Positions 41,239 to 62,800 of a stretch of 64,000 nucleotides of DNA are shown piece after piece. Origin of the DNA: Treponema sp. Its GTDB lineage: Bacteria; Spirochaetota; Spirochaetia; Treponematales; Treponemataceae. Position 1 is the first letter of the stretch. Each line of letters opens with the position of its first letter. Under the pieces are notes generated by a model, which saw nothing but the letters and a program-made list of their open reading frames with translations, did no database searches and was not told the origin of the DNA. The stretch is taken from NCBI GenBank assembly GCA_045627025.1, contig JAZQMW010000019.1, forward strand, positions 3,047 to 67,046, given 5' to 3'. Made by a program: the position numbers and the translations under genes.

Positions 41239-41294
41239 CACCCTAAAAAAGTACCGTTTGAAACAATTTTCTTTTTCTGCTAGAATCTCAAGTC

Positions 41295-45738: not shown

Positions 45739-45852
45739 GGGCGTTCCCCTCCGCTTACGCTACGGGTCAGGCTTTCCGCGGCTCCGGCATTCGCCTCCGA
45801 CCAAACGCATCCGCGTTTGTTTGCTTCGCACCGCTACAATCCTTAACGCGGG
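45739..45852 (-). ncRNA. Flavo-1-like structured element, copy 1
   Basis: Minus strand GCGTTAAGGATTGTAGCGG...CCGCGGAAAGCCTGACCC...GGGGAACGCCC; homologous to 62662-62800; family assignment from recalled consensus only. Confidence 0.65.
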
Positions 45853-46015
45853 AAAAAACAAAACTCCCCAAACATGCATCATCAATGTTATTTGACAATC
45901 TGCATTCAAAGCCTCTTCCAGCGTTCTGCATGCCGGTTTGCATGCCAATTCTCGATTTGCTTACATTGCATAACTTGATAATTCTAGTTTTGTCATAATA
46001 GATTTCCTTTATTCA

Positions 46016-46404
46016 TTAGTTAGACCAATCACTTGGGATATAGCTAAAATAATCTTCAAAAGATGCACACAGTAATTTTCTGCTTTCAAAGTCAGATGTT
46101 TTTCTGTAATCGATTCTGTAAATTGGAGTATTTTGCTGATTCAAATCTGCAAAGAGAATGAAATTTCGCTTAAAACCAAATGAAACACAATTTTACACTA
46201 TCCATCTTTTCCAAAAATAAAACCTTTTTCATACATATACTGTTTAAATTCGTTTGTTACATCAGTATTTGTATTTGCATCTAAAATCTTAAAAGATTTA
46301 AAAATAAAACTTTTCTCTAATTTTTTAAAAACTTCATCAAAATTCTTTGCAGAACCGTTTTTTTCGTAGCCATTTGAATCATAGATTTTGTATTTTGTTG
46401 TCAT
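46016..46404 (-). pseudogene. Disrupted SMI1/KNR4 (SUKH)-like gene
   Basis: 68-aa ORF 46404-46198 followed, in another frame, by NCVSFGFKRNFILFADLNQQNTPIYRIDY...LLCASFEDYFSYIPSDWSN*. Confidence 0.5.
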
Positions 46405-46506
46405 TTTGTGTTTTGCTCCTGATTCTTATAATTCTAGTGCGATTTTCAATTTTGCACAAAAAAAACTTCACAAATTGCGGTTTGCAAAATGGGAAGTTTG
46501 TAAAAT

Positions 46507-48075
46507 CTATTCTTCCTGAATGATCCATTCTGAAAGTTGTCTTTTTTCGCTTGAGTAGTTGATTCCGACTTTTATGATTTTTCTGCCGTCGTATTTGTAA
46601 GGAATCGGATAATTTTGAGAATTTATCTGGTCGATTGCTTCCTGCGCAGTTCCGTCCATTTTGAACTCGAAGATGTAGATTTTCTCTTTTTCCCAGATTA
46701 CGGCATCACTTCTGCCTTCTCCGTTTTGAACTTCGCAGATTATGAATTCGCCCATAAGTTTGAAGATGAGCCACACGAAAGCCTGGCAGTTAAGTTCGTA
46801 TTGCTTTTGATTCGTTGGTTTTGGTGCGGAGGCAAAAATGTTATTGATTCGTTTCATGAAATCGTCGACCTTGCCTTTTTGGATTTCACGAATAAAATTA
46901 AGGACTTCGATTTTGTTTGTTTTTTCTGTATAACCTGCGTACAAAGGAACAAGGTTTTCATAAAGTCCGTAGCGAACTTCATCGTTTGGAAGACCTAAAA
47001 TAAAACTGTTGAAAGTTTTGTCATAAGATTTAATCGTTATGTAGCCTGTTTGATAAAGCATTGGAACTGGATCTGTTGATGTTAATCTATAATTTTCAAG
47101 CGAGCGGGATCCGACTTCAATTTCGTCTTCAAGTAAGTTGTAGTCAAAATCACCATTTCTTATCATCAGCGTCAAAAATGTCGGCGTGCCAGTTGAAAAC
47201 CAGTAACTAGAAAATTTCATATCTGAAAAAGCATTTAAAAGGCTGAATGGGTTGTAAATGTCTGTTTTTACATTTTCAGAAAAATGATAACCGTCATAAT
47301 TTTTTTTGAGCTTTTCTAAACATTCTTCTTTTGTGATTTCATTTTTTTCTGCCATATTTTCAATTTCCGGAATGAAATTTGCTTCCATTTCTTCCTGTGT
47401 TATTCCACAAATTGCAGAAAAATCTTCACTCATTGAAATATCTTTTAAATTATTCAAATCAGAGAAAATGCTTACTTTGTCAAAGCGGGTAACACCTGTG
47501 ATGAAAACAAAACGAATGTAAGCATCTTCGCTTTTTAGATTTCCGTAAAAACCTTTCAGGATATTTCTGATATTGTCTTCAAGTTCTTTGTTTTCGATAT
47601 TTTGCAAAAGCGGTTTGTCGTATTCATCAACGAGAACCACAACTTGCTCTCCAGTTTTTTCAAAAGCAGATTTTATGAGATTTTTGAAACGGATTGAAAT
47701 TGAATCTTCTATTTTTTCGATTTCATAAAGCTTTTCATATTCACCTAAACGATATGAAATTACTTGATTCAAGCTTTTTTCATCAATGTAGTTCTGCCCG
47801 TTAAAATCAAAATGAAAGACCGGATATTTTTTCCATTCTTTTTCTGTTTTTGAAATTGCGAGTCCTTCAAATAAATCAGAGCGGCCTTCAAAATAGCTTT
47901 TGAGAGTTGTAAGAAAAAGCGACTTTCCAAAACGGCGTGGACGGCTTAAAAAATATGGCTTTCCGACACTTGTTAATTTCTCGATAAATTGAGTTTTATC
48001 AACATAAACACATTTTTTTTGTCTGATTTCTTCAAATGTCTGGATGCCGATTGGCAAGTTGCGTTTTTCGTTCAT
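46507..48075 (-). CDS. AAA-like ATPase with C-terminal PD-(D/E)XK nuclease domain
   Basis: LPIGIQTF, YVDKT, LSRPRRFGKSL, LVDEYDKP, FITGV, YNPFS, GRSDAVI...IFEFK; AT-rich. Confidence 0.92.
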   Translation of the reverse strand: MNEKRNLPIGIQTFEEIRQKKCVYVDKTQFIEKLTSVGKPYFLSRPRRFGKSLFLTTLKSYFEGRSDLFEGLAISKTEKEWKKYPVFHFDFNGQNYIDEKSLNQVISYRLGEYEKLYEIEKIEDSISIRFKNLIKSAFEKTGEQVVVLVDEYDKPLLQNIENKELEDNIRNILKGFYGNLKSEDAYIRFVFITGVTRFDKVSIFSDLNNLKDISMSEDFSAICGITQEEMEANFIPEIENMAEKNEITKEECLEKLKKNYDGYHFSENVKTDIYNPFSLLNAFSDMKFSSYWFSTGTPTFLTLMIRNGDFDYNLLEDEIEVGSRSLENYRLTSTDPVPMLYQTGYITIKSYDKTFNSFILGLPNDEVRYGLYENLVPLYAGYTEKTNKIEVLNFIREIQKGKVDDFMKRINNIFASAPKPTNQKQYELNCQAFVWLIFKLMGEFIICEVQNGEGRSDAVIWEKEKIYIFEFKMDGTAQEAIDQINSQNYPIPYKYDGRKIIKVGINYSSEKRQLSEWIIQEE

Positions 48076-48242
48076 ATTTTCCTCCGTTCATGCCTTCTCT
48101 AACCTCTAATTTTAGCATAATTTTAAAAAACTGAAAACCTTAATAAAGCATGTTAAAAACTTACGCTTTTCTGTTTTTTTTCATCATAAAAATCAAGCCA
48201 TCGAGAAAAAAGCCTAGCTTAAACATCAAGACTAGGTCACTA

Positions 48243-48475
48243 TGAATTTGCGGCAGTGTGTTTTTTGGTGCACCTTTGCGTGAAGATAAACATCATCATG
48301 CTTTTGGCGGCAGTTTTGCGATTAAGTGGGTTTTGATTGCAAATTTTCTGGAAGAATAATCATCATCATGCCTTTGGGGTGCCCCTGCGACGGTTTGCTT
48401 CCAAGGCATCTATCTGGAAAACGGCACACGGTCTGCGTTCTGCATGTCATTTTGCTTTCCAATGCCGTTTTGCAG
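48243..48475 (-). repeat. Inverted, more decayed copy of the 40.8-41.2 kb repeat
   Basis: Reverse complement contains GCAAACCGTCG..GGGGCACCCCAAAGGCATG, TTTGCAATCAAAACCCA and exact TATCTTCACGCAAA; CATCATCATG recurs at 70-bp spacing (48291, 48361). Confidence 0.75.
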
Positions 48476-48574
48476 ATGCAAGAAACCCATGCATACCAAA
48501 ATAACGGCATGCAGAGTTGCTTTATGCACCACATAGAGATTGATTTCATGCATTTTAAGGCAGATTTAAGAAAA

Positions 48575-49474
48575 TTACTTGCAGTGCTTTATCCTGAAAA
48601 GTGATGCACAGTTTTCATCGACGGTCTTTGAAAGCTTGTCTACGCTCATGCCGATTTTTCCGGCTATGAAATCATATGTATATTTCACGTTGAGGGGATT
48701 GTTTTCAGTTCCGCGAAGAGGTACTGGTGCAAGATACGGAGAGTCTGTCTCAAGAAGGATTCTGTCTTTCGGCACGTAATTTAGAAGCGATATCATGTCG
48801 TCAAGTTTGTCTTTCTTTGCATAAGTCACGGCACCGCCAAACGCAAGATACCATCCCCTGTCAAGGAATGATTTTGCCTCATCGATTCCGTAAGAATAGC
48901 AGTGGACGATTCCCCTGTCGTATCCGACGCTTTTTATGACGTCCAGAGTGTCTTCAAATGCTTCCCTTGAATGAATGATGAAAGGAAGGTCAAGTTCCCT
49001 CGCATATTCAAGCTGCATTGCAAAAAGCTCTTTCTCGCCCATGAACATTTCCTTGTTGAAATCCTCACGGCATCTTCCGTCTGTTCCTGACGGATTCCAA
49101 TGATGGTCTATTCCGCCCTCGCCTATGGCCGCAAGATGGTCACGGAACATGCTGTCGCTTTCAAGAAAATCGTCGACCATATCGCGAAGAGTCTCCATGC
49201 ACGATTCCCTTTCCCTTATGGAATCCACATCAGGCCAAATTCCTGCCGAAAGGTAAATTGACTTTTTGAGCTTGCTCTGCATGTTTACGTCTGAAAGGTT
49301 TTCAATGCATTCCTGGAGACAAAAAGCCCTGTCCATAAGGTCATCCGCACGTGTTCCCACATCAAGGCCAAATGCAATTTTGTTTTTTGCCATCTGCTCC
49401 AAAAGCTCGGTACCGTATTCCGTGCTGTTGTTCTCCACAAGATTATGAAAATGAAAATGAGTGTCGCTGAACAT
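48575..49474 (-). CDS. TatD-family hydrolase
   Basis: DTHFH, AIGEGGID, IIHSREA, GIVHCYS, ILLETDSPYLAP; GAGG SD before ATG 49474. Confidence 0.92.
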   Translation of the reverse strand: MFSDTHFHFHNLVENNSTEYGTELLEQMAKNKIAFGLDVGTRADDLMDRAFCLQECIENLSDVNMQSKLKKSIYLSAGIWPDVDSIRERESCMETLRDMVDDFLESDSMFRDHLAAIGEGGIDHHWNPSGTDGRCREDFNKEMFMGEKELFAMQLEYARELDLPFIIHSREAFEDTLDVIKSVGYDRGIVHCYSYGIDEAKSFLDRGWYLAFGGAVTYAKKDKLDDMISLLNYVPKDRILLETDSPYLAPVPLRGTENNPLNVKYTYDFIAGKIGMSVDKLSKTVDENCASLFRIKHCK

Positions 49475-49615
49475 AAATTCCTCTTCCAAAATATCTGAAA
49501 CTCCTGAATTCGGGGTAAAATGCACCGCACTTCCCATGAAAAGCATCTTGAGATGACCGGGAAAGCGAAGTCTGAAACCATGTCGCAAATCCTGCATCTT
49601 TTCCAAAATCAAGTT

Positions 49616-49645
49616 AAAAAAAAAGACAGCCAAAAGACTGTCTGT
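49616..49645 (-). terminator. Terminator after tRNA-Leu
   Basis: AGACAGTC-TTTT-GGCTGTCT followed by a T run on the minus strand. Confidence 0.75.
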
Positions 49646-49648
49646 TTG

Positions 49649-49736
49649 TGCCGGGAACCAGAATCGAACTGGCACGGCAGGTTAAATTGCCGAGGGATTT
49701 TAAGTCCCTTGTGTCTACCTATTCCACCATCCCGGC
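49649..49736 (-). tRNA. tRNA-Leu (anticodon TAA), CCA not encoded
   Basis: GCCGGGA acceptor stem, TGGTGGAATAGGTAGAC D arm, GGGA-CTTAAAA-TCCC, long variable arm, GTTCGATT; upstream TTGAAT-N17-TATAGT. Confidence 0.95.
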
Positions 49737-49796
49737 GACATATAGTACTATACACCATATGCTTTTTTTATTCAAGTAGCTGACCCAATTTAGACA

Positions 49797-50285
49797 TCAG
49801 CGAACCTTGCTGTACAAATCAACCATTTCCTCACGCCACGGAAGCTTCTTTTCCTTTGACTCGAAATCAATGATTTTCTTTATCTTGAAATGCTTCGTAT
49901 CGTGAATATTCTCATAATAAATTACGCCAAACCGCCCCTGGCCTATGTATGCAATCTTGTCATTCGGACCAAGCGATTCCTGCTTTTGAAGGCTTTCTAC
50001 GACACAGTCAAAATGCATCACCTTTTCTGCTTCAGAATCAGTAATGGCCGTGGTTATCTCCGAGATTGGCTTTCCGCATATGGCACAGACATGATTCTGC
50101 TCTTCCTTGAAATGCTTTATGGCCATCTCGTTTTCCTTTATCATTTCCTGCGTCACGGATTGAATTGTCGGTCGGAAAACAGGCTTTGAGGCAGCATATC
50201 CTTTGGAATTCTCACGATATTCCTTTCTGCCGCCTTCGTTGTTTTTCCAATTATTATGACGTTTACTGTATCTGTCTTTTTTCAT
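49797..50285 (-). CDS. Conserved hypothetical protein with Cys/His motif
   Basis: CAICGKPI...HFDC, YIGQGRFGVI. Confidence 0.8.
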   Translation of the reverse strand: MKKDRYSKRHNNWKNNEGGRKEYRENSKGYAASKPVFRPTIQSVTQEMIKENEMAIKHFKEEQNHVCAICGKPISEITTAITDSEAEKVMHFDCVVESLQKQESLGPNDKIAYIGQGRFGVIYYENIHDTKHFKIKKIIDFESKEKKLPWREEMVDLYSKVR

Positions 50286-50460
50286 GCGTATATTATAACG
50301 TTTTCTCTACATTAAAATCAACAATATGCCTGCTCATTATTACAGCAATCCTGTCTATTGCAAAATTAATGTAATTTTCATCCTGGATTTTCTTCTGCAA
50401 TTCCGCTATTTTTGGCGAAACCGTACTCTTTGATGCAACATTGTCCACTGTCTGCATTTA

Positions 50461-50838
50461 TCACTCCGAAAAAGCATTGACAATATGATATTCCGTATCC
50501 AGCCCCGGCACATCAATTGCCAGCACATCAAATCTGATGTACCTGTTACTATATTCTCGATGTTTTTCAAGGTAACATTTAGATGTTTTGATTATGTTTT
50601 TGATTTTTTTCCGATTAAGTTCTGACTGCAGGATGTCAACATTTCCATGGGGAAGATACTTGACCTCAACAAAGACAATGAATTCCCCGTAAAGCGCCAC
50701 TATGTCAATCTCACCGCCACGGATGTAGTAATTCCTGTCTACAATCTGATATCCGTTTTTCAAAAGAAACGAGACAGCCCTCTCCTCTCCAATATTTCCC
50801 ATTTTTCTGGTAGAAATCTTATTTTCCACCATCAGCAC
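50461..50838 (-). CDS. YraN family protein
   Basis: GNIGEERAVSFL, RNY, GEIDIVA, IVFVEVK, RFDVLAI. Confidence 0.9.
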   Translation of the reverse strand: MLMVENKISTRKMGNIGEERAVSFLLKNGYQIVDRNYYIRGGEIDIVALYGEFIVFVEVKYLPHGNVDILQSELNRKKIKNIIKTSKCYLEKHREYSNRYIRFDVLAIDVPGLDTEYHIVNAFSE

Positions 50839-51098
50839 TAATCCTCATCAAGCGGTTCAAGTTCTTCCAGTTCTTCAAATTCTTCTTCATCTTTTTCCAT
50901 GTTCATCAGTATCTGTTCCTCGGTAAGCTGTTCACCATCGGAAAGAAGATACGGCACGGACCATCTTTTCAAAGCAGACATGTGAAATGCCTTGGCACTT
51001 TTATAAGCTCCAAGAAACATGCAAATTCCATCATCAAAAAAAACAGGTTTTGAAAACTGCACTCCTATCTTGATTCTGGATATATCAATCTGATTCAT
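50838..51098 (-). CDS. Hypothetical protein with acidic tail
   Basis: AAGGA SD; abuts yraN; FSKPVFFDDG. Confidence 0.7.
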   Translation of the reverse strand: MNQIDISRIKIGVQFSKPVFFDDGICMFLGAYKSAKAFHMSALKRWSVPYLLSDGEQLTEEQILMNMEKDEEEFEELEELEPLDED

Positions 51099-51639
51099 TT
51101 CAATTTCCTTAACTTTTTTATCTAAAAATCCAAATGCATGACTTGCAAATTTCCAGGCAAAGAAAAATCTCCGCAAGGAAAAATGAGCCGCAAAGAACAT
51201 CAACATGGCAAAATACCCGCATTAATGCACTGCGACATGCCCAAACACGCAGCATTCACATGAATTCCCAGGCAATCAAGAATCCCAAAAAAACATTCCG
51301 GACTCCAGAAACCACCTACCAAAATACAGATAAAAAGCCTTAAAAAATACCTTATTTTGTAAATATAATGCAAAATACCATTTTTTCAAGCCCATGCCAA
51401 AACAAACATAATTTTTTGCACTTATGGCAGTCAAAAAAACTGCAGCCTGAATTCCAGCCAAGGAACATTCTTTGGAAACACATTATGCCATTCCGGGAGA
51501 CTGTGTCCAATAAAGATGAAACCATACGAGTTCCATTGCAAATCGCCCCAAGGATATCTCACGATGCCATGCATTCATTTTTTCAATAAAAATACTTTTG
51601 AAATTTTCCCTTGTTTTTTAATTTTACAAACACCATAAC

Positions 51640-51673
51640 GGAATCTCTGAAAATTGCAATTTTTAAAGGTTCC
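51640..51673. repeat. REP-like palindrome
   Basis: GGAATCTCTGAAAATTGCAATTTTTAAAGGTTCC. Confidence 0.6.
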
Positions 51674-51676
51674 CAT

Positions 51677-51728
51677 AAAAAAGGCAGTCCGCAAGAAAAC
51701 ATTTGCATGTACCTTACAGGACTGCCAA
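51677..51728 (-). terminator. Terminator after rplS
   Basis: GGCAGTCC...GGACTGCC followed by T6 on the minus strand. Confidence 0.6.
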
Positions 51729-51778
51729 TATCAGGCATTCTCCAGCCGAATTTCGTTCAAAAACCCGACTGAATCAAA

Positions 51779-52225
51779 TTATTTTGCGTTTCCAGCCTTT
51801 GCTTCAGCACGAATAGCTGCTTCTGCTGCATCAGCTGCCTTTGCTGCCTCACGAGAAGCTGCCATCTCAGCATTTGCCTTTGCTCCGATAAGTTCCTTAA
51901 TCTTTGATGCCTTACCAATCTTATCGCGAACATAGTAAATCTTTGAACGGCGAACCTTACCTGGGCGAACAAGTTCAACCTTGATAACGCGTGGGCTGTA
52001 TACTGGGAATACGCGCTCTACACCAACACCGTAGCTGATCTTGCGAACAGTAAATGTCTTGCGTACGCCAGAATTCTTAAAACAAAGAACAAGTCCTTCA
52101 AAAACCTGAATTCGCTTTGTTTTACCTTCAATAATTTCGAAGTGAACCTTTACAGTGTCTCCAACCTTGAAACAGCCTGCATTTGGTTTCTTCTGCTTTT
52201 CTTCAATAGTCTTAATAAGATCCAT
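51779..52225 (-). CDS. rplS: 50S ribosomal protein L19
   Basis: [44 protein letters not shown]. Confidence 0.97.
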
Positions 52226-52235
52226 CTTTTAGCTC

Positions 52236-53006
52236 CTATTTCTTTTTCTTACGGCTATTCTTTAATTTGACAAATTCCGTAAGTTCTTCGATCATTTTTT
52301 CGGCCTCAGAAGTAAGAGTTCCAGAATTTCTTGCCCTGCAGATAAGATCAGGTCTGTTCCGCAAAGTCTTTTCTATACTCTTTTTCAGACGCCACTTTCG
52401 GATTTCTTCGTGGTTGCCGCTGCAAAGAACAGCAGGAACTTCCATGCCTTTGTATACATTCGGCCTTGTATACTGGGGATATTCCAAAAGATTGCCAGAA
52501 AAACTTTCCTCATCCAATGATTCATGCGTTATGACACCATCTACAAGACGATAGACTGTATCTACAATCACAGTAGCTGCGACTTCACCGCTCGACATTA
52601 CATAGTCGCCGATTGAAATCTCTTCATCCACATAAGAATCAATTATCCGCTGGTCAATACCTTCATATCTTCCGCAGACAAGGACAAGCTCGTCCTTTTG
52701 GCTTAATTCCTGGGCTTTGGCCTGAGTAAGCGGCTTACCGCTCGGAGTAACATAAATGACATGTTTGCTCTTTTTGTATGCCTCAACACTATCCAAAGCC
52801 TTTCCAAGAGGTTCAGCAAGCAAAAGCTGCCCAGCCCCTCCGCCGTAAGGTGCGTCATCACAAGTGTGGTGTCTATCAAGGGCAAAATCCCTGATATTTA
52901 CCAAATCGTAAGCAATAATTCCCTTTTGAACCGCCTTTGCCATGATCGAACTTTCAAAAAAAGCACGCGGAATCTCAGGAAACAAGGTCAGCACAGTAAA
53001 TTTCAT
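52236..53006 (-). CDS. trmD: tRNA (guanine-N1)-methyltransferase
   Basis: LTLFPE, DDAPYGGGAG, CGRYEGIDQR, SIGDYV, LLEYPQYTRP. Confidence 0.97.
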   Translation of the reverse strand: MKFTVLTLFPEIPRAFFESSIMAKAVQKGIIAYDLVNIRDFALDRHHTCDDAPYGGGAGQLLLAEPLGKALDSVEAYKKSKHVIYVTPSGKPLTQAKAQELSQKDELVLVCGRYEGIDQRIIDSYVDEEISIGDYVMSSGEVAATVIVDTVYRLVDGVITHESLDEESFSGNLLEYPQYTRPNVYKGMEVPAVLCSGNHEEIRKWRLKKSIEKTLRNRPDLICRARNSGTLTSEAEKMIEELTEFVKLKNSRKKKK

Positions 53007-53010
53007 AGAA

Positions 53011-53580
53011 TTACTCCAGAATCCAGAGGTGCATCAGCTGAATCAATCCTTTTTCGACATCCACTTCGCCAATAAATTCTTTATTGAACGGAACGAATAC
53101 CTTTTTTCCGGATTTATCCAGACTCTCGGACAGTTCTATCTCAACGAGATAGCCAGATCCGCCTTCCAATACGTTTGTGACTGTTCCAACAACAGGCTTT
53201 TCACCTTTTGCCGGTGCGGTACTACCCGCCACATCCTCATACCATAATGAGCAACCCTTCAGGTCCTCAAAATACCACTCATTTTTCTGCAGTTTATGAG
53301 CTTTGTCGCGCGGAACCACAATCTGATACCTGTTGAACTCTGCAGCTTTCTCAGGGGTATCGATTCCCGCTAGTTTCATGTACAAAGTATTGCCGCCATC
53401 CTTTACGTATTCAACACGGAATACCTTGGAAACGACATCATTTGTCAAAGTAACTTCCTTCATGTCAAAAAAATGCTCAAACACGCCTGAAGTACTTTCC
53501 ACTTTAAATTCACCCGTAATTCCATGGGAACCACGAACAATTCCAACTACAAACTGCTCTTTCAAAGATTTCTCTGCCAT
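53011..53580 (-). CDS. rimM: Ribosome maturation factor RimM
   Basis: VGIVRGSHGITGEFKV, WYFEDLKGC, VPFNKEFI. Confidence 0.93.
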   Translation of the reverse strand: MAEKSLKEQFVVGIVRGSHGITGEFKVESTSGVFEHFFDMKEVTLTNDVVSKVFRVEYVKDGGNTLYMKLAGIDTPEKAAEFNRYQIVVPRDKAHKLQKNEWYFEDLKGCSLWYEDVAGSTAPAKGEKPVVGTVTNVLEGGSGYLVEIELSESLDKSGKKVFVPFNKEFIGEVDVEKGLIQLMHLWILE

Positions 53581-53813
53581 CAGTCCAAGATTTCCAAACT
53601 GTAGCGCAATCCGTCTTTGTTTGCTGAAGCACTCAATACAGTGCGTAGAGCCTTTGCAATGCGACCATACTTGCCAATAACCTTGCCTATGTCACTCTGT
53701 GCCACGCGTAACTGCAATACAGGTCCACGTTCACCTTGTGTTTCCGTTACAGAGACTGAAGCTGGATCATCGACCAATGATTTTGCGATATATTCAATCA
53801 GGTCTTTTTCCAT
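53580..53813 (-). CDS. khpA: KH-domain RNA-binding protein KhpA
   Basis: LVDDP, DIGKVIGKYGRIAKALR. Confidence 0.92.
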   Translation of the reverse strand: MEKDLIEYIAKSLVDDPASVSVTETQGERGPVLQLRVAQSDIGKVIGKYGRIAKALRTVLSASANKDGLRYSLEILD

Positions 53814-53832
53814 TCTTTACTCCTTCTCAAGG

Positions 53833-54096
53833 TTATTTTGCGATAGATGTTCCCTTTGCTGACAAACCGTTCATGTTAAGGATTTTCTTAACGATGGCTG
53901 TTGGCTGAGCTCCTACGCTGATCCAATACTTTGCCCTTTCTACATCTACAACTGTCTGGTTTCCAGAAGCAATTGGATGATACTGTCCGATTTCCTCAAT
54001 TGACGTACCATCACGAGGTTTGCGTGAATCTTGTACTACAATACGATAATCAGGACGAGCTTTTGTACCCATTTTCTTAAGTCTGATTTTGACCAC
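53833..54096 (-). CDS. rpsP: 30S ribosomal protein S16
   Basis: VKIRLKKMG, YRIVVQDSRKPRDG, WISVGAQPT. Confidence 0.97.
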   Translation of the reverse strand: MVKIRLKKMGTKARPDYRIVVQDSRKPRDGTSIEEIGQYHPIASGNQTVVDVERAKYWISVGAQPTAIVKKILNMNGLSAKGTSIAK

Positions 54097-54456
54097 TTTG
54101 GTCCTCCAAAAAAGAATTTAAACCATTCCGAAGAACAGTTTGAATAGATATTTTATTGAAATTCGACAACATAGTCAATGTTTTATGACGCAAATGTTGA
54201 ATATATTCTGGAATTTCTGCATGAAGATGTGGACAGGCCGCATTTTTACGGAGAAACATGACTGCCGAATGATTTTTGATTTCTTTCAGCATGCACAACC
54301 GTTGCCCAAAAAACACCACAAAAAGTTGATGACTTGCAATGTTGATGATATAGTTTAAAACAAAGATTCTTCATGCACCTCGAGGCATCTGCATTTTGCA
54401 AAATAAGATGCACTGCACACAATGCTTTTTTACGTGAAGTTTCAAAGGAGATTTTT

Positions 54457-55635
54457 ATGTATACACCAGAATACTTGGCTGAAAAATTCATTGAACTGTA
54501 CGGCGGAAACAGGAATGACGTCAAACTATACTCGTCACCGGCAAGAATCAACATCATAGGCGAACACATTGATTACAACGGGGGATTCGTCTTGCCATGC
54601 GCCATAGACAGATACCTTTACATTGCCATAAGAAAGAGAAACGATTCTTCCATAATATACAACGACATCGATTTTCCCGGGGAATTCAGGTTCAGCACCG
54701 ACATGGATTTCGAATACAAAAAGGAAAACGGATATGCGAATTTCTTAAACGGAATACTTTTCGAGCTGAAGAAAAAGCACCGCCTGGAAAACGGATTTGA
54801 AATCCTCATGGCAAGCAACGTCTCGTCAGCAGGAGGAATATCTTCGTCATCGGCGCTTGAATGCGGATTTGCATATGCCGTAAGCGAAACCTTCGGCTTA
54901 AACCTTTCAAGGACTGAAATCGCAAAACTCGGGCAGATGAGCGAGCACAACTTCATGAACGTCAAATGCGGAATAATGGACCAGTTCATCATAAGCACGG
55001 CAAAAAAGGACACTGCGGAACTTCTTGACTGCAATACGCTTGAATACAGCTACCTGCCGCTCAATCTTGGAGAATGCGAATTTGTCGTCATGAACACGAA
55101 CAAACAGAGAAAGCTTTGCGACAGCAAGTACAACGAACGCCGTTCCCAATGCGAAAAAGCTCTCGGCATGCTGAACGAAAAGGGAATCAACATAAAAAAC
55201 CTTTGCGACCTGACGGCTGCAGAATTTGGACAGTGCATGGAATTCATAACAGACGACATACTCAAGGACAGGGCATTTCACTGCGTCCACGAAAATGAGC
55301 GCGTGAAGAAAGCTGCGGAAGCCTTGGGGAAAGGAGACCTTGAAAAGCTCGGAAAGCTTCTTTATGAAAGCCATGAGTCGCTCAGGGACAAATATGAAGT
55401 TACAGGCATTGAGCTTGACACGCTTGCAGAGGCCGCAATTTCCTTTGACGGATGCATTGGAGCAAGAATGACAGGTGCAGGGTTCGGAGGATGTGCAATT
55501 GCAATCGTAAGGAAAGACTGTGCAAAAAGCTTTACCAAAAGAGTCGGTGAAATCTACAGGGAAAAAATCGGATACGAGGCGTCATTCTTTGAATGCAAAA
55601 GCGGCGACGGCGTGATGGAAATAAAGAACGCATAA
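54457..55635 (+). CDS. galK: Galactokinase
   Basis: PARINIIGEHIDYNGG, GISSSSALE, CGIMDQF, GARMTGAGFGGC. Confidence 0.95.
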   Translation: MYTPEYLAEKFIELYGGNRNDVKLYSSPARINIIGEHIDYNGGFVLPCAIDRYLYIAIRKRNDSSIIYNDIDFPGEFRFSTDMDFEYKKENGYANFLNGILFELKKKHRLENGFEILMASNVSSAGGISSSSALECGFAYAVSETFGLNLSRTEIAKLGQMSEHNFMNVKCGIMDQFIISTAKKDTAELLDCNTLEYSYLPLNLGECEFVVMNTNKQRKLCDSKYNERRSQCEKALGMLNEKGINIKNLCDLTAAEFGQCMEFITDDILKDRAFHCVHENERVKKAAEALGKGDLEKLGKLLYESHESLRDKYEVTGIELDTLAEAAISFDGCIGARMTGAGFGGCAIAIVRKDCAKSFTKRVGEIYREKIGYEASFFECKSGDGVMEIKNA

Positions 55636-55738
55636 ATTCCCATGCAAGCAAAAAACGGGGAAAACACTCTTCGCGGATGATGATGAAAAACCTTCATTTC
55701 CATGATCAAAGCACGGCATGTCTTCCCCAAGACGAAAG

Positions 55739-56176
55739 TCAGTCCTCGCCTTCAAGAACAGCACATGAGCGGGATATGTACCAGAGAGTCTTTTTCCAGT
55801 CCTCCACCTCATCGGTTGTCTTTTTTTTGCCAAGCCTCGTAAGGTACTTTATTGCGGTTCCTATGTTGAAGGCAAGATCGCCCCTCATGTTCCTGACTGC
55901 AAACTCGATTATCTCAATGGCCTCGACACCGGATTTTCCAAGATACCTTTTCGGATGGTTGGTGACTTTCGTATCTTCCTCATCAGCAAAACAGGAAAGG
56001 TTTTCCGAATGGTTTTCTATAATATGCTCACATTCAGCTTCCATTTTCCTTAAAAAATCATGATATTCCGAACAATCGAGGTTCACTATCTTCAAAAGCT
56101 TTCTCAAAACATCCTGTGCCTTTTCAGAAGGCATGTCAGTCCTTATAAAATCTTCAATTCTTTCCACAGAAATCAT
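55739..56176 (-). CDS. DUF3310-domain protein
   Basis: NHPKRY..GVEAIEII...F.IGTAIKYLTRLGKK...EDWKKTLWY. Confidence 0.8.
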   Translation of the reverse strand: MISVERIEDFIRTDMPSEKAQDVLRKLLKIVNLDCSEYHDFLRKMEAECEHIIENHSENLSCFADEEDTKVTNHPKRYLGKSGVEAIEIIEFAVRNMRGDLAFNIGTAIKYLTRLGKKKTTDEVEDWKKTLWYISRSCAVLEGED

Positions 56177-56209
56177 ATCAAACACTCCACGCAAAACGAT
56201 TTTCGCTCA

Positions 56210-57097
56210 TCATTTTCTCACTTTAACATACTGCTCCGGATCAAAAGCCTCGCCGTTCACCTTTATCTCAAAATGAAGATGCGGTCCAGTCGTAAGCCCC
56301 GTAACGCCGACGCACCCTATGACCTGCCCCGTATCAACATGGTCGTTTTCAGCGACACTTATGTCACGAAGATGCGCATAAAGGCTTTCCATTCCATTCG
56401 AATGCCTGATGACAATGTAGTTTCCATACACGGCATCATTTCTGACGGTTTTTCTTACGGAGCCGCTCCTGCAGGCAAAAACGGAAGAACCTATGGGAGC
56501 CGCAAGATCGATTCCCTTGTGGAATTTCCATTTTCCGGTAATTGGGCTTATCCTGTTTCCGAATGCAGATGTCAGAACCGATTTTTCAAGAGGCAAAACC
56601 ATGCCGACGGTAAGGAAAAAGGCCCTGACGGAACCGCTGAATCTCCTGCCCGGAAGAAAATAGAATTTTTCACCCCTTATGGTATACATCCTTGTGTTTT
56701 CATCATCAAGGTCATTGCGATATTCCCCGTGAAGAAGAATCTCAACGGGATTCCTTGGTTTTTCCGGTATGAAAACCCCATTCACGGTTGGTACAAGAAG
56801 ATTTCTGCCGCCAAGAAAATCCCTGCTTTCAGAAATCCTGTTGATGGTGGCAAAAGTTTCCTGCCAGATGCTGCATCTTGAGACAATCGTAAAAAACGTA
56901 TCATCATCCACTGCCGTATAGCTGTAGATTGAAAGATCACTTTCGACATTTTTCTTTGCATTCCTTTCAGAAACCTGCACTTCCTGGATGAACTGATCAA
57001 ACATAAAATCCCTGGACTTGAGCTCCGGAATCTCCGGATAACGCTGAGAATATGCATATGTCGACAAAATGCAGAGCAGTATCGGGAAAATTTTCAT
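56210..57097 (-). CDS. M23 family peptidase with LysM-like region
   Basis: HKGIDLAAP, YGNYIVIRH, YAHL, TGPHLHFE; signal peptide. Confidence 0.92.
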   Translation of the reverse strand: MKIFPILLCILSTYAYSQRYPEIPELKSRDFMFDQFIQEVQVSERNAKKNVESDLSIYSYTAVDDDTFFTIVSRCSIWQETFATINRISESRDFLGGRNLLVPTVNGVFIPEKPRNPVEILLHGEYRNDLDDENTRMYTIRGEKFYFLPGRRFSGSVRAFFLTVGMVLPLEKSVLTSAFGNRISPITGKWKFHKGIDLAAPIGSSVFACRSGSVRKTVRNDAVYGNYIVIRHSNGMESLYAHLRDISVAENDHVDTGQVIGCVGVTGLTTGPHLHFEIKVNGEAFDPEQYVKVRK

Positions 57098-57104
57098 TTC
57101 AGTA

Positions 57105-57136
57105 AAAAAAAACGGTCTCCAAAAATGGAAACCGCC
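57105..57136 (-). terminator. Terminator after ferredoxin
   Basis: GCGGTTTCCA-TTT-TGGAGACCG followed by a T run on the minus strand. Confidence 0.7.
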
Positions 57137-57151
57137 ATTCCAGAACAGAAA

Positions 57152-57322
57152 TTACTCTTCAGCAATAGCTTCTGTTGGACATGCACCTGCACAAGCACCG
57201 CAGCTTACGCAAGTATTTGCATCAATAACACGCTTTCCGTCTGCTTCGCTGATAGCTCCTGAAGGACATTCGCTTTCACAAGCACCACAGTTTACGCAAG
57301 CGTCAGAAATTTTGTATGCCAT
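57152..57322 (-). CDS. 2[4Fe-4S] ferredoxin
   Basis: Two CxxCxxCxxxCP motifs; GAGG SD. Confidence 0.93.
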   Translation of the reverse strand: MAYKISDACVNCGACESECPSGAISEADGKRVIDANTCVSCGACAGACPTEAIAEE

Positions 57323-57436
57323 AATATACCTCTGATTTTTTTTTGTACCGAAAAGGCACATCTATAATATACAATAATATCATGTTTTTTTCAATTGATT
57401 TTTTCCATGGGAAAACATGCCTGCAAACCTCAATTT

Positions 57437-58222
57437 TCAGCAGCCTGAATATTCCGTATAGGCATATGCATTGTGGTTGTGGATGCTTTCAAAATTCTTG
57501 CATTCCACGCTAAACCATGAAAAAGGTTTTTCGGCGCCCTTGAAGTTCCTGAGCGCAATATACACCTCGCGGACAACATCCTCCACAAAACGCGGATTTT
57601 CATATGCATGCTCGGTGACGTATTTTTCATCTGGACGCTTGAGGATTGAATAAAGGCCACCTGACGCGTTCTTCTCTATCACCTCAATCACATCCTCGAC
57701 CCAGAAAAGGGACGAATTCCTAAGCTTCACGCACACGATTCCCCTCTGATTGTGGGCACCGTACTCGCTTATGGCCTTGGAACAGGGACAAAGTGTGGTT
57801 ACGGGAATCCTTATTTCAAGGAAAAAACAGTGGCCGCTTTCGGTAACTTCACCCTCATACGTGCACTCGTAACGCATTATGCTCTCGCTTTTGGAAACCG
57901 GAGCTTCCTTTGTCATGAAAAACGGAAAAGTCATTGTTCCGTACGATTTCTCGGCTGAAAGGGAAACCCTTATCTCGGAAAGCATTTCCAGAAACTGCTT
58001 CATGCCGAGATTATCCTTGTGCTTGTGGAATATCTCGATGAACCGGCTCATGTGCGTTCCCTTGTAGTTGTGCGGAAGGTTCACGAAAAGATCGACTTTC
58101 GCACACGTATTCTGGGAGCCGTTTCTCTTGTCAAGGACTTTTACGGGATATTCAAGATCCGTCACGCCAACTTTCTTAAGCGGAACATTCCTCGTATCAT
58201 TAGAATTCTGTACATCAAGCAT
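57437..58222 (-). CDS. folE2: GTP cyclohydrolase IB
   Basis: KGTHMSRF, TTLCPCSK, GAHNQRG, KRPDEK, NPRFVEDVVR, ESIHNHNA. Confidence 0.95.
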   Translation of the reverse strand: MLDVQNSNDTRNVPLKKVGVTDLEYPVKVLDKRNGSQNTCAKVDLFVNLPHNYKGTHMSRFIEIFHKHKDNLGMKQFLEMLSEIRVSLSAEKSYGTMTFPFFMTKEAPVSKSESIMRYECTYEGEVTESGHCFFLEIRIPVTTLCPCSKAISEYGAHNQRGIVCVKLRNSSLFWVEDVIEVIEKNASGGLYSILKRPDEKYVTEHAYENPRFVEDVVREVYIALRNFKGAEKPFSWFSVECKNFESIHNHNAYAYTEYSGC

Positions 58223-58317
58223 ACCAAATACACCTTTTCAATCTATCTATTTTAATTTTTTAAATACGCATTTTCAATTAGGTCGAATGCCAAGTTTTGA
58301 AAAATAACAATTTTTAT

Positions 58318-58406
58318 GGTCATTGAGACTATCGAAATGACAAATTTATTAATTATTGTGATTTCGACAAGTGGTATCCTGAGCTTGCAGAAGGACTCAA
58401 TCACCG
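58318..58406. repeat. REP/REPIN-like element (TGAGCTTGTCGAA family) with a nested copy
   Basis: GGTCATTGAGACTATCGAAATGAC ... GTGATTTCGACAAG[TGGTATCCTGAGCTTGCAGAAGGA]CTCAATCACC. Confidence 0.6.
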
Positions 58407-58598
58407 CAATATTAGAGTTCTTTCATAAAAAATTAAAAACTCGAAATTGAACCAATTAATTATCAAATGCAAAAACTTAGAAAAAAAACAAGGATTCACA
58501 TTCAAAAAAGCTTCTTAAAAAAAACGCAAGACTGGAACCGACTCACATGCAATTCCAATCCTGCATCATCAAAAAGCCCTATTGCAAGGGACAGTTTC

Positions 58599-60188
58599 TT
58601 ATTTTATGAGCAAATCAGCAAAAGCCTTGAGTGCTCCGTCCATCTTTCCTGCAAGAACAGTCTTTGCAAGTACCTTTCCAAGCTGAACGCCTTCCTGGTC
58701 AAAGCTGTTTACATTCCAGAGGAATCCCTGGAACATAACCTTGTTCTCGAAGTGTGCAAGAAGGGCACCGATTGTCTTTGGATTTACCTGATCTGCGTGG
58801 ATGAGGCTTGAAGGACGCTCACCTTTGAAGAACTTGTTTGGATTCTCGTTGTCCTTACCGCATGCGAATGCAATAATCTGTGCAGTAACGTTTGCGCAGA
58901 GTTTTTTCTGGCTTGTGGAATCCTCGATTACGACATCCTTTCCAGTCTGGTTTTCGCGGAATGCAATGAACTGGAGAGGAATGATGTCTGTTCCCTGGTG
59001 GAGAAGCTGATAGAATGAGTGCTGCCCGTTTGTTCCAGGCTCACCGAAAATAACAGGTCCCGTAACGTAGTTGATTTTCTCGCCAAAGCGGTTTACGCTC
59101 TTTCCGTTTGACTCCATGTCAAGCTGCTGGAGATGTGCCGGGAAGCGTGAAAGTGCTTGTGAATATGGAAGGACTGCCGTTGAAGGATAGCCCTGAACGT
59201 TTCTTTCGTATACGCCGATGAGTGCATCCATCAAAGATGAGTTCTTTGTGATGTCCTTTTCTGTTGCGTTCTTGTCCTGCTCTGCGGCACCGTCAAGGAA
59301 GTCTGCGAAAACCTTTGGTCCGAAAGCAAGAGAAAGGATTGCCCCACCGACACCTGAAGATGAAGAATAGCGTCCGCCGATGTAGTCATCCATGAAGAAT
59401 GCCGCAAGATAATCAGGACTTTTTGCAAGAGGTGATGTCTCGGAAGTAACCGCAATCATGTGCTTTGAAGGGTTGCATCCGGCCTTCTTTATGAAATCTT
59501 TTACGAAAGACTCGTTTGTAAGTGTCTCGAGAGTTGTTCCAGACTTTGAAACAAGGATGAAGATTGTTTTCGAAATGTCGATTGAAGAACAAACTGCTGC
59601 GGCATCATCAGGATCTACGTTAGAGATGAACTTTGTGTCCATCTTGAATGTATTGTTTGCCTTTGCCCAGTTCTCAAGGGCAAGATAGATTGCACGAGGA
59701 CCGAGGTCTGAACCGCCGATGCCGATCTGGCATACAGTCGTGAACTTCTCGCCCTTCTCGTTTAAGATTTCACCGCCATGAACCTTATTTGCAAAGTCAG
59801 CCATTTTTTTCTGCTCGTTGATGTAGAACTCGCGCTTGTTTACGCCGTCGGCAACAACATCCTTTCCAAGTTGACCGCGGAGAAGCTGATGCAATACCAT
59901 GCGCTTTTCTCCGGTATTTACGACCTCACCGTTATAAAGGGCCTCGAATTTTTCCAAAAGCTGGCTTTCTTCTGCAAGCTCCTTGAGCACGGAAACAACC
60001 TGTGCATTCACCTGCTTTGCGGCATAATTGTATTTGAGTCCCGCACCCATGGAAATTGAATAGTCTGCAACACGTTTTGCAGCATCCGCACTAGAAAGTT
60101 CCTTTGCAACAGATACGGAACCCTTCAAAGACTGAAGTTTCTTGAAAGATTCAAGAGTATCAAGATTGCTCCATGAAATAGATGACAT
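58599..60188 (-). CDS. pgi: Glucose-6-phosphate isomerase
   Basis: IGIGGSDLGP, SKSGTTLET, GGRYS, QQLDMESNGK, GTNGQHSFYQL, FDQEGVQLGK. Confidence 0.97.
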   Translation of the reverse strand: MSSISWSNLDTLESFKKLQSLKGSVSVAKELSSADAAKRVADYSISMGAGLKYNYAAKQVNAQVVSVLKELAEESQLLEKFEALYNGEVVNTGEKRMVLHQLLRGQLGKDVVADGVNKREFYINEQKKMADFANKVHGGEILNEKGEKFTTVCQIGIGGSDLGPRAIYLALENWAKANNTFKMDTKFISNVDPDDAAAVCSSIDISKTIFILVSKSGTTLETLTNESFVKDFIKKAGCNPSKHMIAVTSETSPLAKSPDYLAAFFMDDYIGGRYSSSSGVGGAILSLAFGPKVFADFLDGAAEQDKNATEKDITKNSSLMDALIGVYERNVQGYPSTAVLPYSQALSRFPAHLQQLDMESNGKSVNRFGEKINYVTGPVIFGEPGTNGQHSFYQLLHQGTDIIPLQFIAFRENQTGKDVVIEDSTSQKKLCANVTAQIIAFACGKDNENPNKFFKGERPSSLIHADQVNPKTIGALLAHFENKVMFQGFLWNVNSFDQEGVQLGKVLAKTVLAGKMDGALKAFADLLIK

Positions 60189-60345
60189 AATTTTCTCCTG
60201 GTCTGAAAATGTATTCGCTAAGTATACCAAATAATGATTTATTATTCTAGGTACATTTTGCGGGTTTTGGGTCCATCATGACATGACATGCGACCCATAA
60301 GGATATTCTAACACAATTTTGGGATTTTTACCGACAACTTGAATA

Positions 60346-60374
60346 TTGACAATTTATGCATATTTATACATAAT
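60346..60374 (+). promoter_or_regulatory. argR promoter with overlapping ARG box
   Basis: TTGACA-N17-CATAAT; TATGCATATTTATACATA at 60355-60372. Confidence 0.8.
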
Positions 60375-60382
60375 TTTCTGAT

Positions 60383-60853
60383 ATGAAAGACAGATATTTG
60401 CGCTTAAAGACAATCCGTAAGCTGATAAAGAACAACAAGATAGAAAGTCAGGAAGACCTTCTGAGCCTTCTGCAGAAAGAAAAGTTTGAAGTGACGCAGG
60501 CAACGCTTTCAAGAGACTTGAAGCTCATGAAAGTAGGCAAGATAAGTGACGGAAACTCAGGATATGTATACACGATTCCGGAAGACGAGGATGCAAAGGA
60601 AAGCGACCAGATTTACGTGCAGGATTTCCTTCGGGGATACTTGAGCATTGACACAAGCGGAAACATCGTGGTCATAAAGACACTCGGAGGCTATGCACAC
60701 AGCGTCACGAACGCACTTGATTCCATGAACATGGAAGACATTCTCGGAACAATTGCCGGTGAAAACTGCATTTTCGCATGCCTGAAGGAAGGCGTCACGG
60801 GCAGACAGTTCCTTGAAAAACTCAAGGAAAAAATTCCAGAACTTGAAATATGA
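60383..60853 (+). CDS. argR: Arginine repressor
   Basis: SQEDLL, VTQATLSRDL, ILGTIAGEN. Confidence 0.94.
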   Translation: MKDRYLRLKTIRKLIKNNKIESQEDLLSLLQKEKFEVTQATLSRDLKLMKVGKISDGNSGYVYTIPEDEDAKESDQIYVQDFLRGYLSIDTSGNIVVIKTLGGYAHSVTNALDSMNMEDILGTIAGENCIFACLKEGVTGRQFLEKLKEKIPELEI

Positions 60854-61022
60854 CAGGAATTCCAGGAATTCAATTCCAGAAGTAAAATCGAAAGCTGACG
60901 CATTCATGAAAAAGCCAGGATTTTTTTGGTTACATGGCTTTTGTGATTGGGCAAAATGCAAAAGCCGTTACATGCGGCCAAAGCGGAATGCCCAGCTCAG
61001 GATAACAGGACGGAGAGAAATA

Positions 61023-62030
61023 GTGGTTACCATCAAAGACATAGCAAGAGAATGCAATGTTTCTTTTTCTACAGTCAGCAAGGCATTGAAAAATTCAAGC
61101 GAAATAAGCAGCGAAACGAAAAAATTCATACATGACAAGGCGACCCAGATGGGCTACCATCCGAATCTTGCGGCCCATGCCCTGCGAACGAACAGAACTT
61201 ACGACATCGGCATCATTTTTGAAGACAGAACCGGTTCCGGATTCATGCACCAGTATTTTGCGACAATCATAAGCGGCATACAGAAGGCAGCCCAGGAAAA
61301 AGGCTACGAAATCACATTCATAGGAAGAAGCAGGGAATCTTCTTTCGATTACCTGAACCATGCCAGAACAAGAAACTATGACGGAATCGCAATCCTCTCA
61401 TGCGACTTCAATTCAGATGAAATCAAAAAACTTGTGCAAAGCGAAATTCCGACAGTTACCCTCGACTATTTTTATGACGGCAGCCATTCGGCAATAATGA
61501 GCGACTACAAGACAGGAATCAGGGAACTTCTTGAACATGCAATAAGACGCGGCCACAAAAAAATTGCAATGATTCACGGGGAAGACACCCTTGTCACGAA
61601 GGAACGCATGAACGCATTCAATGAAACATGCATGAAAAATGAAATCACCATACCGCCTGAATATTTCGAGGAAGCGCTTTACCATGACCCGATTTCAAGC
61701 GAAAAGGCAACAAAAAAACTCATGGCACTTGAAAATCCCCCGACATGCATTTTTTACCCAGACGACTATTCGGCCATCGGAGGGATACGCGAGCTTGGAC
61801 GGAGAAACCTTGTGCCCGGAAAAGACATAAGCATTGCAGGATATGACGGAATAATGCTTGCATCAATGCTTAACCCGCCCCTCACGACATACGAGCAAAA
61901 CGGTCTTGAAATCGGAACCCAGATTGCGGGGCTTCTCATTTCAAACATTGAAAATGCATCTTCATTTGAATGCAAGCATCTTCTTGTGGGCGGAAAATTA
62001 ATCAAAGGCGGCACAGTGGCACGAATTTAG
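61023..62030 (+). CDS. LacI-family transcriptional regulator
   Basis: TIKDIARECNVSFSTVSKAL, GYHPNLAAHAL, PGKDISIAGYDG, PPLTT; GTG start after GGAGAG. Confidence 0.93.
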   Translation: MVTIKDIARECNVSFSTVSKALKNSSEISSETKKFIHDKATQMGYHPNLAAHALRTNRTYDIGIIFEDRTGSGFMHQYFATIISGIQKAAQEKGYEITFIGRSRESSFDYLNHARTRNYDGIAILSCDFNSDEIKKLVQSEIPTVTLDYFYDGSHSAIMSDYKTGIRELLEHAIRRGHKKIAMIHGEDTLVTKERMNAFNETCMKNEITIPPEYFEEALYHDPISSEKATKKLMALENPPTCIFYPDDYSAIGGIRELGRRNLVPGKDISIAGYDGIMLASMLNPPLTTYEQNGLEIGTQIAGLLISNIENASSFECKHLLVGGKLIKGGTVARI

Positions 62031-62191
62031 AATGAAGAAGAAACTTTTGGGATGGAGGATGTCAGGATTTTGTGCTATACTTTTCATGGAAACATTTCCA
62101 TTTCAGAAAGCAAATTGACAGGATGCAAAACTCAACAAGATTTTTTTGAACAAAGTTCCCAACCAAAAGATTTGCATTTCCAGGAGAGCAT

Positions 62192-62636
62192 ATGAAAAAC
62201 ATAAAATTACTAAACAAAAGTATACGAGGGGGGGGTATAAACAAGCCATAAGGCTTTTTTCATCCCTTGCATGCAAAGTTCTATTTTCTTCCATAATATT
62301 TACATCATGTGAAAACTTCATGGACGACGGTCTCATCAAGGCAGAACCTACTTATACCTTGAACTGCATGACAAATGTTCCGGGATAAGCAAGATTGAAA
62401 CAAGAATTGCATCTGGTGGAAATGTATGTGAAATTTCAAACATATTCGTAATGTTTAACAAGACTTTCGGGGCAGCATATGCCAATGACACAAAGACAGG
62501 CATCAAAGACAGCTGGTATGACGGAGATAATGTGGGCATTATTGTGGAAAAAAAGCTCAGCAGTTTTACCGCAGAAATATGGGTGACAGACGGTGCCGGT
62601 AATGTCAGTGATAAAATTACCTATAAATATCCGTAA
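62192..62636 (+). pseudogene. Frameshifted remnant of a surface lipoprotein with a poly-G tract in the signal peptide
   Basis: AGGAG SD, ATG 62192, G8 tract 62228-62235, lipobox IFTS-C in a second frame, D..SGI and VTDGAGNVS in a third frame ending at TAA 62636. Confidence 0.7.
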
Positions 62637-62661
62637 AATAGCGTGAAGAGGTGCTGTTTTC

Positions 62662-62800
62662 CCCGCGTAAGGGATTGGAAGGGTGCCTTTGGCAAACGAA
62701 AGTTTCTGCGCAAGAAGAAACTTTTGTTCGGAGGCGAATGCCGGAGCCCTGAAAAGCCCGACGGTGGAACGAACGAAAGAGAGTGGAACCGGTACGCCCC
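62662..62800 (+). ncRNA. Flavo-1-like structured element, copy 2
   Basis: GCGTAAGGGATTGGAAGGG...CCCTGAAAAGCCCGAC...GGTACGCCC; 21-nt identity with copy 1. Confidence 0.65.

Follow-up and report, generated by a model that had tools for sequence, protein, structure and literature searches.

The 64,000-nucleotide stretch of Treponema sp. DNA analyzed here (hereafter the window; assembly GCA_045627025.1, contig JAZQMW010000019.1, positions 3,047 to 67,046) harbors two folded elements, copy 1 and copy 2, which are a branched variant of the Flavo-1 family, itself a known motif of unexplained function. By analogy of placement, we propose, with a probability of about 0.55, that such elements would serve as a host-recognized single-strand initiation signal at which synthesis of the complementary strand is primed. 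This proposal derives from the constancy of the frame among Reps that are unrelated to each other, plasmids and chromosomes, and from its location where single-stranded DNA (ssDNA) elements require a priming site; for microviruses, this is a hairpin (PMC9865509).

From the outermost part inward, the family is built of a 4-bp helix, a 3-bp helix, an A.G mismatch, TT/AA, a 3x3 GNA/GNA loop and a 4-bp helix that usually encloses two to four short arms, a 3' hairpin being also present. Every stem pair that the original prediction had named was found in the sequence of the two copies, and so was the identical 21-mer, whose arm in copy 1 holds a second 3x3 loop, GGA/GGA (Table 1). When the Rfam consensus line and seed rows were compared with an alignment of the nine copies of the source genome, the core GAUUGNAG...CGNAAAGC was present together with its closing helix, which bears out the proposed Flavo-1-like frame.

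The Flavo-1 RNA motif (Rfam RF01705) was reported by Weinberg et al. in 2010 (PMC2864571). The window elements share with it the GAT(T/A)GNAG ... CGNA(A/T)AGC core and flanking helix, the outer ends of many seed rows, the multicopy character and the occurrence in Bacteroidota and spirochaetes, and long or branched inserts already exist in some seed rows. Where Flavo-1 as filed has a single hairpin, they bear two to four short arms; they also carry a second GNA/GNA loop, are read here as DNA rather than RNA, and escape the Rfam model. Thus, the model scan that had been suggested detected nothing in the window or in either copy, even at E<=10, and genome-wide it returned two unrelated matches of 18-20 bits, below the 42-bit threshold; 1 of 17 loci tested passed the model. 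The extra arms that had been claimed relative to the single Flavo-1 hairpin are a general trait, since two to four hairpins lie inside the stem in 70 of 96 Treponema-type copies versus 12 of 65 others, as folded with DNA parameters by a program that under-counts non-canonical arms.

That structure is conserved more than sequence holds both in the genome copies and in relatives. In the nine-copy alignment the 13 frame pairs were paired in 117 of 117 cells (27-56% in slid controls), and seven of them were changed on both sides, a value reached by none of 500 shuffles. In 96 distinct relatives, mostly gathered with a filter requiring just two of the four inner pairs (the GTDB spirochaete rows were taken without any such requirement), the inner 4-bp stem was fully Watson-Crick in 85, with 18 different 5' 4-mers, and 367 of its 384 cells were paired versus 89-159 when slid. 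The middle position of the 3x3 loop varies freely, the commonest form being GTA/GAA (31 of 82 elements), and a second 3x3 GNA/GNA loop, also with a variable middle, closes the last arm in 48 of the 96 copies. The folding energy of single copies was unremarkable (RNA z of 0.36 for copy 1 and -0.83 for copy 2); with DNA parameters, z was -1.68 and -1.23 on the element strand and -0.30 and -0.26 on the opposite one.

The hairpin loops point to DNA as the working material. Loops of the cGNAg type and GNA/GNA zippers are DNA-stabilized motifs. GNA triloops, mostly closed by C-G, made up 50 of the 195 hairpins (stems of at least 4 bp) on the element strand of 82 elements, and the reverse complement of the same elements gave just two; the remaining loops included 20 GNRA and a single TTCG. 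Because GNA triloops are specific for the element strand and outnumber GNRA and TTCG, we consider it very probable that the fold of the family works at the DNA level. Matches to Flavo-1 in Flavobacterium psychrophilum lie sense and antisense alike, many of them untranscribed, and ignore the direction of transcripts (PMC9723704). The ssDNA-folding form advanced in the original prediction is therefore supported by the one-strand GNA loops and by these data as the most likely working form.

The source genome (2.53 Mb, 85% complete) contains nine copies of the main type. A descriptor based on structure only gave 11 matches, all intergenic, and none in the reversed genome; four of them represent a second sequence type (type B) with the same architecture and a different second helix, which brings the total to 13 elements. 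The four type-B copies had no Rfam match, and their exact pattern was found neither in IMG/VR nor in any of 100 relatives. A looser pattern of the main type occurred in 87 of 100 genomes of the genus at 0-83 matches each, some of the low counts being due to chance, and almost never in controls. In GTDB there were at least 121 matches, of which the first 80 named were mostly from Bacteroidota, with 14 from spirochaetes; the branched type in the named records was found mainly in Treponema and other spirochaete assemblies.

The frame was also found in small phages. A strict pattern of it matched 28 IMG/VR contigs, 20 of them microviruses with one intergenic copy each; a first viral pattern was rejected as too loose, as its 120 matches were mostly chance. 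Since ssDNA phages favor NNT codons and T-rich third positions mark their genomes (PMC3278643), we infer that the T-rich strand is the packaged strand. In four pooled IMG/VR scans, all 29 microvirus elements (two from one contig) lay on the strand whose fourfold sites are rich in T, and viral elements that failed the pair filter, such as those of L235 and L240, stand outside the 29 yet also lie on that strand; for other viral elements the figure was 24 of 42. Six of six GenBank microviruses fetched, of ten records matched, agreed, one of them narrowly. With respect to the genes, 9 of the 29 elements were sense and 20 antisense, the sense set comprising three lineages and the antisense set one clade. 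Because this clade also has the element on the T-rich strand, T-richness tracks the element and not the genes. The frame stayed constant across Reps of about 26-32% identity, and three microviruses carry a branched junction.

The antisense clade (L232, L236, L242, L243, L245, L249, L250, L254, L256, L259, L263, L266, L267, L435, L441, L442, L446, L454, L455, L475, L489 and L490) has all its genes on the A-rich strand, the T-rich strand being antisense. Judged from composition, this suggests that it may package the gene-antisense strand, of which nothing was found in titles or abstracts of the literature. L486 (gene-sense) and L490 (gene-antisense) have a near-identical element, each on its own T-rich strand, suggesting that the element module was exchanged between microviruses. 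In tailed-phage or prophage contigs (L237, L241, L246, L260, L261, L264, L269, L271 and others) the element often abuts the 3' end of a terminase-like open reading frame (ORF) in antisense orientation, as judged by eye, and the 3' neighbor is on the opposite strand in 36 of 42. Two contigs of 9-10 kb, L233 and L253, look by eye like inoviruses; the element lies on their T-rich strand, close to one of the contig ends, and the two proteins tested gave no PHROG match.

Among Bacteroidales plasmids 83 matched, 48 of them conjugative. Five were read, and in three (pBF9343, p5482 with two copies, and NZ_CP102939) the copy lies on the strand that would be transferred according to the relaxase position (rule from PMC11541004), ardC adjoining it in two of these three. 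When copy 1 and two further variants were used as plasmid queries, the matches were short or weak only.

On the chromosomes, the elements are accompanied by a halo of altered composition. At silent sites, fitted with locus, strand and codon effects for 83 elements of the genus set, the G-versus-A log odds on the element strand were about 0 upstream and +0.38, +0.44, +0.31 and +0.26 over the first kilobase 3' of the element, fading by 1-1.5 kb and holding for genes on both strands. Rows left out of the composition analyses were L228 (no element matched), L284 (unpaired) and 41 GTDB loci without flanks. The G excess was greater 3' than 5' in 52 of 65 elements and in 18 of 19 genomes, compared with 139 of 252 control intergenic sites. 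The halo of copy 1 is strong: the CoA-activase-family gene beside it has a silent C/(C+T) of 0.69 and the eighth lowest G+T of 1469 genes, and along its length the ratio is 0.57-0.75, whereas six orthologues behind which no element was found have 0.28-0.60. Of the eight genes lowest in silent coding-strand G+T, three, this gene included, directly follow known copies on the 3' side and are encoded on the strand opposite to them. Inspection of the gene with the most extreme skew in the genome, made without prior knowledge of an element there, revealed a then-unknown type-B element, divergent in sequence and with the same fold. No clear sequence context was found for the halo in the genus set. 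A very strong one-strand G+T bias was also seen over 8 kb at C14:30100-38400, where no element was found and the contig ends 600 bases further.

The substitutions behind the halo were examined in two genomes 4.3% apart, G031 and G080; the latter is the smaller, and silent G/C-to-A/T differences toward it are about twice the reverse. The A/G divergence 3' of the elements was 0.066 +- 0.005, where a lowered G-to-A rate predicts 0.058-0.066. For 28 elements, G-to-A on the element strand was 0.71 [0.59-0.84] of the expectation over the first 750 bases 3', C-to-T was 1.19 [0.98-1.43] 3' and 1.26 [1.05-1.52] 5', and A-to-G was 0.99. These data point to the halo being a lesser loss of G to A and not a gain of G from A. 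Since G-to-A is lowered, C-to-T raised and A-to-G unchanged, C-to-T changes seem to be shifted to the element strand from the opposite one. Two other origins were rejected: A-to-G hypermutation (by a diversity-generating-retroelement-like system, a deaminase or error-prone resynthesis) predicts a divergence of 0.089-0.105, and phased Okazaki priming does not fit a halo that is present whichever way the element is replicated (11 of 15 and 6 of 7), as classed by a split-sample classifier that left 34 elements ambiguous, two biased classifiers having disagreed. A single past mutation burst is disfavored by an expectation of 0.078-0.081.

In placement, the elements resemble the phiX174 primosome assembly site (PAS) and the single-strand initiation (ssi) sites of plasmids, each of which is a hairpin structure that occurs once between genes, lies on the viral or transferred strand, is recognized by the host and is needed to start the complementary strand (PMC9865509, PMC11541004). 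Their relatives share this position in all 29 IMG/VR and all six GenBank copies from microviruses, through the T-richness argument, and in three of the five plasmids. They differ from PAS and ssi in lacking evident sequence likeness, in occurring in other host phyla and in being scattered over chromosomes, where as many as tens of copies are found and a composition halo accompanies them. In the proposed mechanism the element would take its fold in the single-stranded state alone; replication proteins of the host would then load there and prime complementary-strand synthesis, so that phages and conjugative plasmids carrying it could have their incoming single strands converted to duplex. On the chromosome, where the case is weaker, the element strand might be transiently exposed and a primosome, by guess of the PriA/DnaB/DnaG type, might load and work 3'-ward with the element strand as template; cytosine deamination would then shift onto this strand, which would keep its G for about 1 kb. 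A PriA-type route is itself less likely than not. The priA gene is present in the source genome and in 9 of 14 control genomes as well.

Taken as a whole, Flavo-1 might be not an RNA but a portable ssDNA replication start signal of Bacteroidota and spirochaetes, acting as complementary-strand origin of microviruses (in one clade of which the strand antisense to the genes would be packaged), as transferred-strand copy in plasmids and as a chromosomal loading site that rewrites the strand mutation bias over the next kilobase, a synthesis that falls somewhat short of even odds. If true, a motif unexplained since 2010 would gain a testable function and move from RNA to DNA, gut microviruses and Bacteroidales plasmids would have a candidate second-strand origin, negative-sense microviruses would be predicted, and a 110-base element would alter local strand-specific mutation in chromosomes. 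A search of titles and abstracts, which did not extend to subscription papers or to the supplements of bioRxiv preprints, found no report linking Flavo-1 to ssDNA priming, microviruses or the halo.

Several observations weigh against the initiation-signal proposal. Priming and protein binding are predictions, and the microviruses amount to about four independent lineages, in which the inversion is a single event. The hexamer AAGCGG, taken here as the mark of the phiX174 PAS, is mostly absent from the elements (found in 1 of 29 copies from microviruses, 17 of 83 from the genus set and 13 of 80 from GTDB). No branched copy of the Treponema type was found in an ssDNA phage or plasmid, and the link of the window copies to phages and plasmids runs through the shared frame. 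As to the plasmids, the annotated relaxase of NZ_OY725773 places its copy on the non-transferred strand, the stretch of NZ_CP103198 read has no relaxase and hence no strand call, and the transferred strand was deduced from relaxases, with no oriT located. The halo is absent at copy 2, including the GH94 gene 3' of it, at copy C7 and at two of the four type-B copies, and in the 14 GTDB spirochaete loci it was seen in only 5 of 8. A strand switch should raise T, yet the pooled elements show no rise of T versus C (29 of 64), and G031 alone does (+0.27). In 66 mostly Bacteroidota elements, which include two Treponema-type records and one likely chance match, the excess is two-sided (38 of 49 up, 41 of 57 down), whereas that of the genus is 3' only. 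Finally, the substitution pattern comes from a single genome pair without outgroup (the best further match was 82% on one gene), with polarity taken from the 2:1 AT drift in G080, and it may also have arisen by selection.

The alternative that survives best overlaps with the initiation-signal proposal and differs from it in enzyme and direction. The fold would be an ssDNA promoter of the Frpo kind, with -35 and -10 boxes rebuilt in it, bound by RNA polymerase, which would copy the element strand 5'-ward, express early genes and leave a primer. Frpo promoters are likewise folded ssDNA on the transferred strand near early genes such as ardC and ssb (PMC11541004). In pBF9343, p5482 and NZ_CP103198 the copies do adjoin opposite-strand genes pointing away (ardC; pcfK/pcfJ/ssb), antisense microviruses place rep or small genes likewise, and the 5' neighbor is on the opposite strand in 21 of the 31 other viral contigs having one. 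Such a gene is missing in gene-sense microviruses, however, where the element also occurs, as it does on chromosomes; the element is much shorter than Frpo; the halo of the genus extends 3' and not 5'; and the frame is identical in Bacteroidota and spirochaetes, whose promoter consensus differs. We therefore regard this alternative as unlikely.

Quite unlikely, too, is the function offered in the original prediction, a recombination or insertion site for gene turnover comparable to attC or REP, whose folded ssDNA would be processed by a tyrosine recombinase or a HUH transposase. The copies must be spread by something, and their patchy counts per genome and modular arms fit such a site. In copies C7 and C71 the upstream flank, which is the end of an AAA-nuclease gene, and the outer frame agree, and divergence sets in exactly after the 3' end of the element and inside the junction, so that arms are exchanged on a common flank and frame, and a paralogue of this gene precedes three of the nine copies of the genome itself. 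This pair, which alone suggests that gene plus element may have moved together, is the only one of gene length and one-sided among 124 elements; the other upstream-only matches are modules of 82-115 bases. No neighbor family recurred in more than four loci (1426 proteins from ORFs of at least 70 aa around 163 chromosomal elements), and neighbors were diverse, often housekeeping genes, on either strand. The upstream gene of 97 elements was on the same strand in 45, on the opposite strand in 30 and absent in 22. Between G031 and G080 none of 26 elements with alignable flanks, as counted from the G031 side within the stretches fetched, differed in presence. Transposases of the Y1/HUH class do not follow copy number: Y1 transposase PF01797 occurred in 30 of 101 genomes, among them 4 of the 11 with most copies and 4 of the 13 with none, and was absent from the source genome at E<=1e-8, so that the linkage to, or tracking of, repeats typical of REP/RAYT was not seen. 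Integron attC sites form arrays in which each ORF is paired with a site and all units point the same way, whereas the elements are dispersed single copies in either orientation. The core boxes of attC are RYYYAAC/GTTRRRY; the elements end by inspection in GCGT/ACGC and have no recurrent neighbor, IntI itself not having been searched. The one inverted element pair that was read encloses a flavodoxin-like ORF, and the single microvirus copies would be left unexplained. Like REP/RAYT and Ssn/NTS repeats (PMC11893778) and like attC sites, the elements are dispersed one-strand DNA folds, modular and patchy in copy number, but they have a different consensus, that of NTS included, no partner gene beside them, no arrays and no strain-level turnover in the pair compared.

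An improbable option is that the fold is nicked by the Rep of a phage or by an Ssn-like ssDNA nuclease of the host, with resynthesis of the nicked strand raising A-to-G 3' of it. The 3' geometry of the halo and its independence of fork direction fit, and Ssn enzymes cut beside one-strand hairpin repeats (PMC11893778), but the observed A/G divergence and A-to-G ratio lie below what resynthesis predicts, the frame is constant across dissimilar Reps and no nuclease recurs around the 163 elements, the distribution of the GIY-YIG family not having been searched. A structured non-coding or cis-acting RNA, as which Rfam files Flavo-1, is very improbable: covariation fits RNA equally, GNRA loops are present and the GTA/GAA loop resembles the RNA E-loop, but GNA is the prevailing triloop, TTCG loops are nearly missing, the folding z for RNA is close to 0, and orientation is random to genes and transcripts and follows the T-rich strand in phages. 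In favor of an RNA, a Flavo-1 transcript is listed in a Leptospira study (bioRxiv 2023.03.29.534852).

Table 1. Elements and neighboring genes (window positions, except for the type-B elements, given by contig of the source genome)
Feature	Position	Strand	Remarks
Copy 1, branched Flavo-1-type element	45739..45849	minus	fold read from sequence and alignment
Copy 1, frame			P1 GCGT/ACGC; P2 AGG/CCT; A.G; TT/AA; GTA/GGA 3x3 loop; P3 GCGG/CCGC
Copy 1, inside P3			three inner arms; plus 3' hairpin
21-mer in copy 1	45780..45800	minus	third arm and start of P3 3' strand
Copy 2	62665..62799	plus	frame as in copy 1, arms different; GGG/CCC, GGA/GAA loop, AGGG/CCCT
21-mer in copy 2	62728..62748	plus	identical to copy 1 21-mer
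Type-B element	C5:825-886	plus	structure descriptor
Type-B element	C41:34483-34555	minus	structure descriptor
Type-B element	C68:7855-7927	minus	structure descriptor
Type-B element	C72:35267-35339	plus	structure descriptor
CoA-activase-family gene	41295..45632	plus	3' of copy 1, opposite strand
Two short ORFs (68 and 42 aa)	46016..46404	minus	between AAA gene and copy 1
AAA-ATPase-like + PD-(D/E)XK gene, intact	46507..48075	minus	5' of copy 1, 657 bases away; 522-aa ORF
Probable broken lipoprotein gene, two frames	62146..62636	plus	5' of copy 2; by eye
GH94 glycoside phosphorylase gene	62915..64000	plus	3' of copy 2

The decayed accessory genes that had been placed upstream of both copies hold in part. 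A lipoprotein remnant is plausible before copy 2, where a lipobox-like FTSC was recognized by eye, with no significant Pfam match. The AAA-nuclease gene near copy 1 is intact, a neighbor for which a cargo role would be putative, and the ORFs taken as an SMI1 remnant had no Pfam match at E<=0.1. Beside homologues of the GH94 gene the element pattern was absent in 19 of 19 loci of relatives, apart from one loose chance match (L161).

In many relatives, multi-hairpin modules of 80-115 bases are stacked 5' of the copies (L494, L507, L500, L491, L217, L222, L200 and L218); some begin with the same outer frame, some are in tandem, and modules lie 3' at a few copies. They were not found in the source genome. 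Degenerate low-complexity intergenic repeats of several hundred bases occur at 40847-41283 and 48326-48604 of the window and in C92, C87, C71, C68 and C90; some sit just 5' of elements, and sequencing reads connect two of them across strands. A tRNA gene at 49649-49736 of the window (minus strand) overlaps the mechanical start of the TatD ORF (48575-49675), and the true TatD start therefore lies further in.

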